Shown: positions 19,977 through 22,294 of the stretch, one piece after another
Position numbering within the stretch: the stretch's first letter is position 1
Layout of the letters: the number at the start of each line of letters is the position of its first letter
Assembly: GCF_003334815.1 (NCBI RefSeq)
Contig: NZ_QOWO01000001.1
From: Escherichia coli
GTDB taxonomy: Bacteria > Pseudomonadota > Gammaproteobacteria > Enterobacterales > Enterobacteriaceae
DNA length: 64,000 nucleotides
Strand: one strand, 5' to 3'
Notes under the pieces: generated by a model
The model's database searches: none
What the model was told of the DNA's origin: nothing
What the model saw: the letters and a program-made list of their open reading frames with translations, nothing else
Position numbers and translations under genes: made by a program

Positions 19977-20606
19977 ATGATTTTATTCGCCGACTATAAC
20001 ACCCCTTATCTTTTCGCTATTTCCTTTGTACTGTTGATCGGCCTGTTAGAAATTTTTGCGCTTATCTGCGGTCACATGCTCTCCGGTGCTCTTGATGCAC
20101 ATCTTGACCATTATGATTCTATAACCACAGGTCATATTAGCCAGGCACTTCATTATCTCAATATTGGAAGATTGCCAGCTCTCGTCGTTCTCTGCTTACT
20201 GGCTGGTTTTTTTGGTCTTATTGGCATCCTGTTGCAGCATGCCTGCATCATGGTCTGGCAATCACCACTGTCGAACCTGTTCGTGGTTCCTGTCAGTTTA
20301 CTGTTTACGATTATTGCGGTGCATTATACCGGTAAAATAGTTGCGCCCTGGATTCCACGCGACCATAGTTCAGCTATTACAGAAGAAGAATATATTGGTA
20401 GCATGGCGTTAATTACCGGTCATCAAGCCACTTCAGGTAATCCCTGCGAAGGAAAACTCACCGATCAATTTGGCCAAATACATTATTTACTACTGGAGCC
20501 TGAAGAAGGAAAAATTTTCACTAAAGGAGACAAAGTGTTAATTATTTGCCGACTTTCTGCAACGCGATATTTGGCGGAAAATAATCCCTGGCCCCAAATA
20601 TTGTAA
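19977..20606 (+). CDS. yqiJ: NfeD-like inner membrane protein YqiJ (C-terminal OB-fold)
   Basis: 209-aa ORF with several hydrophobic helices; immediately upstream of flotillin-like yqiK. Confidence 0.88.
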
Positions 20607-20632
20607 TTTATTAATCAAAAGGAAATTTAATA

Positions 20633-22294
20633 ATGGATGATATTGTTAATTCTGTGCCCTCCTGGATGTTTACCGCAATTATTGCCGTATGCATTCTGTT
20701 TATTATTGGAATTATTTTCGCCAGGCTCTATCGTCGCGCTTCGGCAGAGCAAGCTTTTGTTCGTACTGGTTTAGGTGGGCAAAAAGTGGTAATGAGCGGT
20801 GGCGCAATCGTGATGCCGATCTTTCATGAAATAATCCCCATCAATATGAATACTCTGAAGCTGGAAGTCAGCCGCTCAACCATTGATAGCCTGATTACGA
20901 AAGATCGTATGCGCGTCGATGTAGTAGTCGCTTTCTTTGTGCGGGTAAAACCTTCAGTAGAAGGGATTGCCACCGCTGCCCAGACGCTGGGGCAACGCAC
21001 CCTGTCGCCTGAAGACTTACGTATGTTGGTTGAAGATAAATTTGTCGATGCCCTCCGTGCAACAGCTGCGCAAATGACCATGCATGAGTTACAGGATACC
21101 CGCGAGAACTTTGTGCAGGGGGTGCAAAATACAGTGGCAGAAGACCTGTCGAAAAACGGTCTGGAACTGGAGAGCGTTTCACTTACCAACTTTAACCAGA
21201 CCTCGAAAGAACATTTCAATCCGAACAATGCCTTTGACGCCGAAGGTTTAACCAAACTGACTCAGGAAACAGAGCGCCGTCGCCGCGAACGTAACGAAGT
21301 TGAACAGGATGTAGAAGTTGCGGTGCGTGAAAAAAATCGCGATGCGCTATCGCGCAAGCTGGAGATTGAACAGCAAGAAGCGTTTATGACGCTTGAGCAG
21401 GAGCAGCAGGTTAAAACCCGTACTGCCGAACAGAATGCACGTATTGCGGCTTTTGAAGCTGAACGTCGTCGTGAAGCAGAGCAGACACGAATTCTGGCTG
21501 AACGACAGATTCAGGAAACAGAAATCGACCGCGAACAGGCCGTCCGCTCAAGAAAGGTTGAAGCTGAACGTGAAGTTCGCATTAAAGAGATCGAACAGCA
21601 GCAGGTCACCGAAATCGCTAACCAGACGAAATCGATCGCTATTGCCGCCAAATCGGAACAACAGTCCCAGGCAGAAGCGCGTGCTAATCTCGCACTTGCA
21701 GAAGCGGTAAGCGCCCAACAAAACGTAGAAACCACTCGCCAGACTGCCGAAGCCGATCGTGCTAAACAAGTTGCCCTAATCGCTGCCGCGCAGGATGCAG
21801 AAACCAAAGCGGTTGAACTGACCGTGCGGGCGAAAGCAGAAAAAGAAGCCGCAGAGATGCAGGCGGCGGCTATCGTTGAGTTAGCCGAAGCTACACGTAA
21901 AAAGGGTCTGGCGGAAGCAGAAGCACAACGTGCGCTGAACGATGCTATCAACGTACTTTCTGATGAACAAACCAGCCTTAAATTCAAACTGGCCTTGTTG
22001 CAGGCGCTGCCTGCGGTAATAGAGAAATCCGTTGAGCCGATGAAGTCAATCGACGGTATCAAGATTATTCAGGTCGATGGTCTGAATCGTGGCGGCGCTG
22101 CGGGTGATGCAAACACGGGTAATGTGGGGGGCGGAAACCTGGCGGAACAAGCATTATCAGCCGCTCTCTCTTACCGCACACAGGCACCGCTGATTGACTC
22201 CTTGCTCAATGAAATTGGCGTTTCAGGCGGCTCACTGGCGGCATTGACTTCACCCTTAACCTCAACAACTCCCGTCGAAGAAAAAGCAGAGTAA
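20633..22294 (+). CDS. yqiK: SPFH/band-7 (flotillin-like) protein YqiK
   Basis: 553-aa ORF: N-terminal TM, SPFH core, long E/A/R/Q-rich coiled-coil segment. Confidence 0.9.
   Translation: MDDIVNSVPSWMFTAIIAVCILFIIGIIFARLYRRASAEQAFVRTGLGGQKVVMSGGAIVMPIFHEIIPINMNTLKLEVSRSTIDSLITKDRMRVDVVVAFFVRVKPSVEGIATAAQTLGQRTLSPEDLRMLVEDKFVDALRATAAQMTMHELQDTRENFVQGVQNTVAEDLSKNGLELESVSLTNFNQTSKEHFNPNNAFDAEGLTKLTQETERRRRERNEVEQDVEVAVREKNRDALSRKLEIEQQEAFMTLEQEQQVKTRTAEQNARIAAFEAERRREAEQTRILAERQIQETEIDREQAVRSRKVEAEREVRIKEIEQQQVTEIANQTKSIAIAAKSEQQSQAEARANLALAEAVSAQQNVETTRQTAEADRAKQVALIAAAQDAETKAVELTVRAKAEKEAAEMQAAAIVELAEATRKKGLAEAEAQRALNDAINVLSDEQTSLKFKLALLQALPAVIEKSVEPMKSIDGIKIIQVDGLNRGGAAGDANTGNVGGGNLAEQALSAALSYRTQAPLIDSLLNEIGVSGGSLAALTSPLTSTTPVEEKAE

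Follow-up and report, generated by a model that had tools for sequence, protein, structure and literature searches.

The yqiJ-yqiK pair of Escherichia coli encodes a flotillin-family protein with a predicted 11-residue-register wall helix and an NfeD-like partner

Introduction

What do yqiJ and yqiK of Escherichia coli build together, and what sets the length of the long charged helix that the second protein carries? We addressed these questions on a 64,000-nucleotide (nt) stretch of contig NZ_QOWO01000001.1 (the window), in which an earlier sequence-only reading had proposed a yqiJ-yqiK pair at positions 19977-22294. Both open reading frame (ORF) borders proved exact, and the gene identification agrees with RefSeq, which gives "OB-fold-containing protein" for yqiJ and "flotillin family protein" for yqiK. 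The two genes are:

19977..20606, + strand: yqiJ, 209 amino acids (aa); ORF list and RefSeq annotation
20633..22294, + strand: yqiK, flotillin-family protein of 553 aa; ORF list, Pfam and RefSeq annotation

They lie on the same strand with 26 nt between the yqiJ stop and the yqiK start, and are flanked in RefSeq by yqiI, glgS (minus strand) and ibs/sib toxin-antitoxin repeats. A 3.3-kb query around the pair is 100% identical to K-12 derivatives (J53 and ME8067 among them), and 5393 of 5426 complete E. coli genomes (~99%) cover at least 80% of its length.

The gene pair itself brings nothing new: RefSeq annotates it, and the literature has treated it since 2009 as an NfeD2/SPFH2 operon, grouped with YuaF/YuaG (Hinderhofer 2009, PMC2636767). 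The same study reported nuclear magnetic resonance shifts for the YqiJ C-terminus, and found no stress induction of yqiJK, no deletion phenotype and enlarged cells on overexpression. In other published work, the genes upregulated with NarQ include yqiJK, which is handled and cloned there as a pair. The sequence-only reading called the role of YqiJK in E. coli unclear, in agreement with this literature. Here we show that yqiJ-yqiK is a flotillin-NfeD-like pair whose pairing is conserved, and we describe an 11-residue (hendecad) quantisation of the predicted YqiK wall helix, which is a modest, testable addition to a known system.

Results

YqiK has the domain order of a flotillin

Four features of YqiK were delimited:

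20666..20722, + strand: N-terminal transmembrane (TM) anchor, aa 12-30 (hydrophobicity 2.98; model helix 10-37)
20747..21208, + strand: SPFH/Band_7 domain, aa 39-192 (Pfam PF01145, E 2.1e-18)
21230..21997, + strand: long hendecad-register helix, aa 200-455, the predicted cage wall (model helices, lag self-similarity)
21848..22222, + strand: Flot domain, aa 406-530 (Pfam PF15975, full model length, E 6.4e-41)

The SPFH/band-7 domain expected from the letters was thus found by Pfam (aa 39-192), together with a Flot domain (aa 406-530). The SPFH domain aligns to residues 10-154 of human flotillin-1 (E 3e-6). The Flot domain contains the end of the wall helix, the cap helix (LLQALPAVIEKSVEP), a beta strand (IKIIQV) and a C-terminal helix, in keeping with the cap, beta-barrel and C-terminal domain described for flotillin by Fu & MacKinnon. 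In a PDB profile search with YqiK, which returned flotillin-1 and flotillin-2 chains only, the segment from LLQALPAVIEKSVEP to IKIIQV is colinear with the cap helix and beta strand of flotillin-1 (residues 357-391). Single-sequence searches of the PDB with YqiJ and with YqiK gave no match.

The AlphaFold monomer of YqiK has a predicted local distance difference test (pLDDT) score of 67 and a predicted template modelling score of 0.32, with helices at 200-334 and 345-471, followed by a loop and C-terminal helices. When this model was searched with Foldseek, ranks 1-4 were chains of 9BQ2 and 9L3G, the human flotillin cage (E 7e-9 to 8e-7), and lower ranks held prohibitin, stomatin, HflK/C, erlin and the E. 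coli QmcA-YbbJ complex 8Z5G. The SPFH domain, the Flot domain, a heptad-free EA-rich helix and the closest fold are all those of a flotillin. YqiK as a FloT orthologue was rejected: it scores 86.3 bits against the NCBIfam FloT equivalog NF058507, far under the cut-off of 700, and is a flotillin nonetheless. Neither YqiJ nor YqiK matched a PADLOC defence system.

Since there are no Lys or Arg residues before the TM segment and four after it, the bulk of YqiK is predicted to be cytoplasmic and its N-terminus out. The same cytoplasmic orientation is given in published work.

The wall helix keeps an 11-residue register and varies in 11-residue steps

The E/A/R/Q-rich tract that had been put at about 300 aa is real, although shorter: it runs from about aa 205 to 445 (241 aa, 58% E/A/R/Q, no proline) within a predicted helical stretch of aa 200-471 in the AlphaFold model. 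The term "coiled coil" fits it loosely only, as the register is of 11 residues and heptad periodicity is absent. To obtain the register, BLOSUM self-similarity was summed over lags k, 2k, 3k and 4k and compared with permutations. Lags 11/22/33/44 gave z 5.2 in YqiK, with no signal at 7; across six homologues, z was 5.2-8.8 at k = 11 (p at the permutation floor) and -1.7 to 0.5 at k = 7. The solved wall helix of human flotillin-1 gave z 6.4 at k = 11, that is, the same register without heptads, and this wall was solved as a right-handed single-layer barrel without heptads (Fu & MacKinnon). Fourier tests on residue classes were weak (at best period 5.5, p 0.017, and period 11, p 0.044-0.055, uncorrected), and the lag self-similarity alone was decisive. 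Tandem Repeats Finder detected no DNA repeats in yqiK; the register shows up in the protein sequence only. Within the searchable literature, we found nothing tying "hendecad" to "flotillin".

We then defined the span as the residue count between two conserved anchors, the SPFH end (F187) and the cap motif (L455). It is 267 in YqiK versus 202 in human flotillin-1, whose 186-aa wall helix was the longest among the SPFH families compared by Fu & MacKinnon; over the same stretch YqiK covers ~35 residues more than the FloT model. No conclusion was drawn from the difference of ~65 to flotillin-1, which is no multiple of 11, because part of the span is a non-helical linker whose length differs. In 44 homologues of 41-100% identity, the spans were distributed as follows:

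span 254: one rare E. albertii deletion allele
span 256: 11 sequences
span 267: 20 sequences
span 278: 6 sequences
span 300: 3 sequences
span 311: 2 sequences
span 322: 1 sequence

The E. albertii allele is the sole exception to 11-residue steps (43/44 fit). All fixed span differences are multiples of 11, and the insertions are found at several places in the alignment. In more than 10 genera, from Escherichia to Serratia and Hafnia, all enterobacterial proteins examined have a span of exactly 267, while total length ranges over 553-608 aa, mostly through the C-terminal tail. A third homologue search, seeded from a distant locus (L027), also returned enterobacterial proteins. On these comparisons the YqiK tail is long in absolute terms and modal for its own subfamily; "unusually long", as it had been described, therefore stands against other flotillins (267 vs 202) and falls within the subfamily.

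Codons 293-477 of yqiK carry 1761 synonymous versus 167 non-synonymous codon differences, which shows that the sense frame of the helical tract is under strong purifying selection.

The fold and register results bear on a different possibility, that small YqiK-YqiJ oligomers act as an open holdase clamp, which stabilises unfolded or insoluble membrane proteins without ATP. A clamp-shaped flotillin oligomer with direct NfeD interaction and client stabilisation has been described in Staphylococcus aureus (Ukleja 2024), and the same gene pairing occurs here. However, the S. aureus FloA is of the short SPFH5 type (37 kDa) rather than the long Flot-domain type, the closest solved folds of YqiK are closed 44-mer flotillin cages, and YqiK has the cap and beta-strand motifs that close such a cage. 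Further, quantisation of the span by 11 residues is what a continuous lateral helix-helix wall would require. We regard the clamp as rather improbable for YqiK and favour a closed, flotillin-type cage.

Segregating indel alleles do not follow the 11-residue rule

Within E. coli or Salmonella we collected ten in-frame yqiK indel alleles (-35, -30, -26, -13, -9, +5, +9, +10, +13 and +16 aa). All lie within aa 274-415, and none of the ten is a multiple of 11. Two coincide with exact direct repeats in the window: a 14-nt repeat (21453-21466 / 21558-21571, 105 nt apart) matches the 35-aa deletion, and a 9-nt repeat (21671-21679 / 21698-21706, 27 nt apart) matches the 9-aa deletion. Multiples of 11 thus account for 0/10 polymorphic alleles versus at least 5/5 fixed changes (Fisher probability 1/3003, by hand). 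As the segregating alleles are off the 11-residue steps and the fixed differences on them, mutational supply would be unquantised and fixation quantised. We infer that slippage may supply indels of any length, with fixation only where the helix contact seams stay in phase.

Allele frequency within E. coli was sampled in 60 complete genomes spread over the species. None of the 60 carries an in-frame indel allele, which led us to reject frequent length polymorphism of yqiK in E. coli; yqiK is exactly 1662 nt long in 54 of them. In three others (H27, H28, H37) yqiK aligned over 1661 or 1663 nt, suggesting frameshifts or compensating indels, and is still annotated as flotillin family. IS1 insertions interrupt yqiK in 2/60 and yqiJ in 1/60 genomes, and one more has a large deletion (H11, H26, H71, H70). 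A recurrent IS5 insertion at yqiJ nt 562 has been published for macrophage-evolved small-colony variants, and yqiJ may have a hot spot for insertions at its 3' end. A truncated "YqiJ" of 120 aa, named from E. coli O145:H28 and present in 573 contigs, arises by a frameshift after about aa 78, from where it follows the +1 frame (window 20164-20340); in a complete O145 genome yqiJ has 629 nt, 1 nt short.

Could yqiJK be a silenced, decaying remnant in E. coli, dispensable and drifting to pseudogenes? The H-NS-bound promoter region, the near-undetectable protein and the missing phenotypes would fit this, as would IS1 in yqiK and yqiJ, IS5 in yqiJ of evolved clones, the frameshifted yqiJ (120-aa product), the 1-nt-shorter O145 yqiJ and the slippage alleles in the helix. 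A remnant would hardly be retained as this locus is: ~99% of 5426 genomes hold at least 80% of the query, 54/60 yqiK copies have exactly 1662 nt, purifying selection is strong even in the low-complexity tail, and the 267 span is unchanged over more than 10 genera. Decay therefore seems to us an unlikely account, and we prefer a maintained, weakly expressed operon.

YqiJ is NfeD-like by fold and gene order

YqiJ was divided into two parts:

19992..20351, + strand: membrane region, aa 6-125 (model secondary structure, hydrophobicity scan)
20391..20582, + strand: C-terminal five-stranded OB-type beta domain, aa 139-202

The AlphaFold model (pLDDT 93.5) has three TM helices (6-30, 68-94 and 100-125) and two amphipathic helices (35-48 and 53-60). 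Pfam found YqiJ_N at aa 8-115 and YqiJ_OB at aa 139-198 and nothing else. The architecture read from the letters, a multi-pass membrane protein with a C-terminal OB fold, was thus borne out as three long hydrophobic helices and a five-stranded beta domain.

The NfeD likeness was less direct. Pfam NfeD (PF01957) did not match YqiJ, and matched 0/93 diverse members of the YqiJ family at E<=0.001, one member reaching 0.05; the family comprises 1013 clusters at 50% identity. As a YqiJ family profile search of the PDB found no NfeD chain, the question was taken to fold comparison, in which four solved NfeD OB folds matched the C-terminal domain of the YqiJ model. YqiJ has the membrane-anchored C-terminal OB fold of an NfeD protein, and its gene is in an operon with an SPFH gene. 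"NfeD-like" for YqiJ therefore stands on fold and synteny, not on sequence. We predict that YqiJ is an inner-membrane NfeD-like partner with three TM helices and a cytoplasmic OB fold. YqiJ diverges much faster than YqiK in the close loci (L002-L025), with 52-98% versus 87-98% identity to the E. coli proteins.

The NfeD likeness raises the possibility that YqiJK regulates a membrane protease (FtsH, HtpX or another), as HflK/C does, or as in archaea, where a long NfeD cleaves its stomatin partner. Homologues of YqiJ and the structure 3CP0 are named [quoted passage not shown], HflK/C-FtsH cages have been solved, and QmcA has been linked to FtsH. Against this, Pfam found in the 209-aa YqiJ neither the N-terminal ClpP-type serine protease domain of long NfeD proteins such as PH1510 nor another protease domain, and no locus examined has a protease gene beside the YqiJ-flotillin pair. 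YqiK faces the cytoplasm and HflK/C the periplasm, and the reported SPFH-mutant phenotypes are due to hflKC only. We give protease regulation little weight, and retain a stabilising role for YqiJ as the preferred reading.

The pairing is conserved and carries operon signals

In a scan of genome contigs by peptide patterns, which were too specific and reached Enterobacteriaceae only, yqiJ lies 17-31 nt upstream of yqiK in 24/24 loci of about ten enterobacterial genera. In distant loci with YqiJ homologues of 28-42% identity, the next complete Pfam-carrying gene encodes a Band_7+Flot protein in 8/8 evaluable cases, and in contigs of the viral database IMG/VR a YqiJ-like ORF precedes the flotillin gene in 13/15 evaluable loci. 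The YqiJ-flotillin gene pairing is thus conserved over 28%-99% YqiJ identity.

In three distant loci PspA is encoded directly upstream of the pair (L026 229-4064, L037 1800-5472 and L038 1812-5423), in the order gene of unknown function (~167 aa), PspA_IM30, YqiJ-like, flotillin. This gene order is consistent with a link between the pair and phage-shock-type membrane stress systems, and a published neighbourhood analysis agrees with the PspA linkage.

Two distant loci have additional features. In L040, an 88-aa ORF (3722-3988) separates the YqiJ-like and flotillin genes, and the flotillin has 492 aa yet a 278-residue span, the shortening being wholly in the C-terminal tail. In L027, a second, classical NfeD (PF01957)-Band_7 pair (7561-8636) lies ~1 kb from the YqiJ-flotillin pair, just as E. 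coli has both qmcA-ybbJ and yqiJK.

The expression signals around the pair in the window are:

19790..19816, + strand: sigma-70 promoter of yqiJK, TTTAAA-15-TATATT (exact single match in the window to the Shimada 2014 motif)
19967..19970, + strand: GGAG Shine-Dalgarno, 6 nt before the yqiJ ATG (by inspection)
20620..20623, + strand: AGGA Shine-Dalgarno, 9 nt before the yqiK ATG, within the 26-nt gap (by inspection)
22311..22337, + strand: terminator-like hairpin and T-run, 17 nt past the yqiK stop (sequence scan)

Shimada 2014 reported, from SELEX (systematic evolution of ligands by exponential enrichment), a constitutive sigma-70 promoter for the operon "yqiJK" with an H-NS flag. The glgS/yqiJ spacer around the motif is AT-rich (GC 0.34-0.37). 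A sigma-70 consensus scan gave no + strand site upstream of yqiJ, the published promoter being a weak match. No terminator-like site was found between yqiJ and yqiK. The 26-nt gap, the own Shine-Dalgarno of yqiK, the lack of an internal terminator, the hairpin after yqiK and the published promoter all support an operon, and as part of the best overall explanation yqiJ-yqiK is probably a two-gene operon that is weakly expressed in K-12.

The hairpin at 22311-22337 is near-identical to one at 22689-22713, 378 nt downstream in the ibs/sib repeat. As the former is a copy of the latter, the ibs/sib repeat unit seems to begin directly after yqiK. Two SIB_RNA matches (22520-22669 and 22895-23044, both - strand) and two Ibs toxin genes follow downstream.

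The antisense ORF is a shadow of yqiK

One long ORF lies opposite the helical tract:

21511..22062, - strand: antisense shadow ORF, 183 aa, TTG start (ORF list; not in RefSeq)

We considered whether it might be a real overlapping gene. It is 183 codons long, and 76% of the differing codons are synonymous in the antisense frame too. However, this frame and that of yqiK share their third codon positions, and a synonymous/non-synonymous test therefore barely discriminates here; stop codons in orthologues were used for the verdict instead. In 19/23 orthologues the ORF is broken by internal stops, whereas in other species a different antisense frame can stay open for as many as 382 codons. An open run of 185 codons, as here, arose in 11-22% of yqiK versions with shuffled or synonymously resampled codons, and the TTG start of the ORF has no Shine-Dalgarno, the first ATG being at codon 161. 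The product is rich in Ala/Ser/Leu/Arg. An antisense stop needs TAN after a codon ending in T or C, or CAN after a codon ending in T; the frame is open because yqiK codons 294-477 hold no such context, with no Tyr codons and no NNT-CAN dicodons. A coding role is therefore extremely improbable. The warning of the sequence-only reading against annotating this ORF holds: by its length within chance, its broken orthologues and its missing Shine-Dalgarno, it is best taken as a shadow ORF, not a gene, and can safely be dismissed.

Copies on plasmids, viral-class and metagenome contigs

The query matched 45 plasmid records, 4 of them at full length. On plasmid NZ_CP075724.1 (L034; IncX1/IncY), a yqiI-glgS-yqiJ chromosomal fragment (2453-6325) lies between two IS1 copies, with yqiJ cut at nt 572 of 630, and adjoins tet(M) and IS26. 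The same 572-nt yqiJ piece recurs on further plasmids, mostly from pigs.

Seventeen IMG/VR contigs classed as viral (L041-L057) encode relatives of YqiK (41-49% identity), usually preceded by a YqiJ-like gene. Of these contigs, seven exceed 240 kb, for example L043 (480 kb) and L051 (543 kb). Among the flanking ORFs tested on IMG/VR contigs, PHROGs matches were to tellurite-resistance-like, tRNA amidotransferase and unknown-function families, and there were no NCBIfam matches. The large contigs with YqiJ-flotillin pairs look phage-like. The pair with the longest metagenome span, 311, is on a 145-kb contig (L031 / L032) among many short ORFs, and those around the L031 pair gave no Pfam or PHROGs match.

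Discussion

Taken together, we consider that YqiJK is probably a weakly expressed operon for a flotillin-type cage with an NfeD-type stabilising partner that serves under envelope stress. By homology with the solved flotillin and QmcA-YbbJ cages, YqiK would be anchored by its one N-terminal TM helix, with the rest in the cytoplasm, and would homo-oligomerise into a flotillin-type dome whose SPFH domains rest on the inner membrane. The hendecad-register helices, over about 250 residues, would pack side by side into a right-handed single-layer barrel wall, and the cap helix, beta strand and C-terminal helix would close the dome top. Going by FloA-NfeD in S. aureus and QmcA-YbbJ in E. coli, YqiJ, made alongside, would bind YqiK and stabilise the oligomer. 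The neighbouring genes in other taxa suggest that the complex may fence off a patch of inner membrane, and that under envelope stress it may serve, together with PspA-type systems, as a scaffold or holdase that needs no ATP. A wall of helices lying continuously side by side would have to keep its contact seams in phase, so that only indels of 11 residues (three turns) would become fixed between lineages.

Several points weigh against this proposal. The YqiK model, a monomer, is of moderate confidence and has a break of low confidence at aa 335-344, and both the YqiJ-YqiK contact and the YqiK oligomer are carried over from homologues only. In S. aureus, an open "clamp" was preferred to a closed cage (Ukleja 2024). 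Some E. coli and Salmonella lineages retain indel alleles that are not multiples of 11, and the constraint on the register is thus not absolute. RefSeq annotation places no pspA next to yqiJK in E. coli. Deletion mutants, including a quadruple SPFH mutant, have no growth, biofilm or stress phenotype, and deletion or overexpression of yqiJK has no significant effect on 3-hydroxypropionic acid production or import. YqiK is barely detectable at native level in K-12 and was not detected in detergent-resistant membrane. The localisation check suggested by the sequence-only reading has already been published, with conflicting outcomes: YqiK is punctate when made from a plasmid, as that reading expected, whereas an older chromosomal fusion to enhanced green fluorescent protein was diffuse. 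In Salmonella, a yqiJ frameshift was without effect.

The practical outputs are that the antisense ORF is dismissible, that YqiJ can be labelled "NfeD-like" by fold and synteny, and that the tail is a hendecad helix, with no heptad coiled coil. The 11-residue rule is a clean testable prediction on how SPFH cage walls are built, and suggests that natural alleles such as +5, +9 and -13 may be assembly-defective. More tentatively, the YqiK-type wall helix might be a molecular ruler with 11-residue steps from 256 to 322, giving cages of discrete heights, all taller than that of human flotillin, with YqiJ enclosed, and the pairs on phage-like IMG/VR contigs might remodel the host membrane; we hold this to be possible, though doubtful.

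Among known systems, YuaF-FloT (YuaG) of Bacillus subtilis belongs to the same NfeD2/SPFH2 group. YqiK differs from FloT in its score (86 bits vs the cut-off of 700) and in having ~35 residues more, and YqiJ differs in belonging to Pfam YqiJ_N/YqiJ_OB rather than NfeD.

FloA-NfeD of S. aureus is likewise an operon-encoded flotillin with an NfeD protein, and its NfeD binds FloA directly and stabilises high-molecular-weight oligomers (Ukleja 2024). At 37 kDa, however, FloA is short, the NfeD protein has six TM segments versus three in YqiJ, and the assembly is proposed to be a clamp rather than a cage.

HflK/HflC-FtsH of E. coli shares the SPFH cage architecture, but is a periplasm-facing hetero-oligomer without an NfeD partner, and encloses FtsH. 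The paralogous SPFH-NfeD pair QmcA-YbbJ of E. coli (PDB 8Z5G, Tan et al. 2024) faces the cytoplasm and is reported to form a cage of 26 heterodimers. QmcA differs from YqiK in being stomatin-type, with a short wall helix and without a Flot domain; qmcA is upstream of ybbJ, the reverse of yqiJ-yqiK; and QmcA, unlike YqiK, is readily detected as foci and in detergent-resistant membranes. No YbbJ chain was among the fold matches of YqiJ.

The human flotillin-1/flotillin-2 cage (9BQ2, 9L3G) is the best structural and profile match of YqiK. Both have the order SPFH, wall helix, cap helix, beta strand, and both keep an 11-residue register without heptads. The human cage assembles as a hetero-oligomer of 22+22 subunits and is anchored through lipidation and hydrophobic insertion; its wall helix has 186 aa, and it lacks an NfeD partner. 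YqiK, by contrast, is encoded by a single gene and has a TM anchor, a span ~65 residues longer and an NfeD-like partner.

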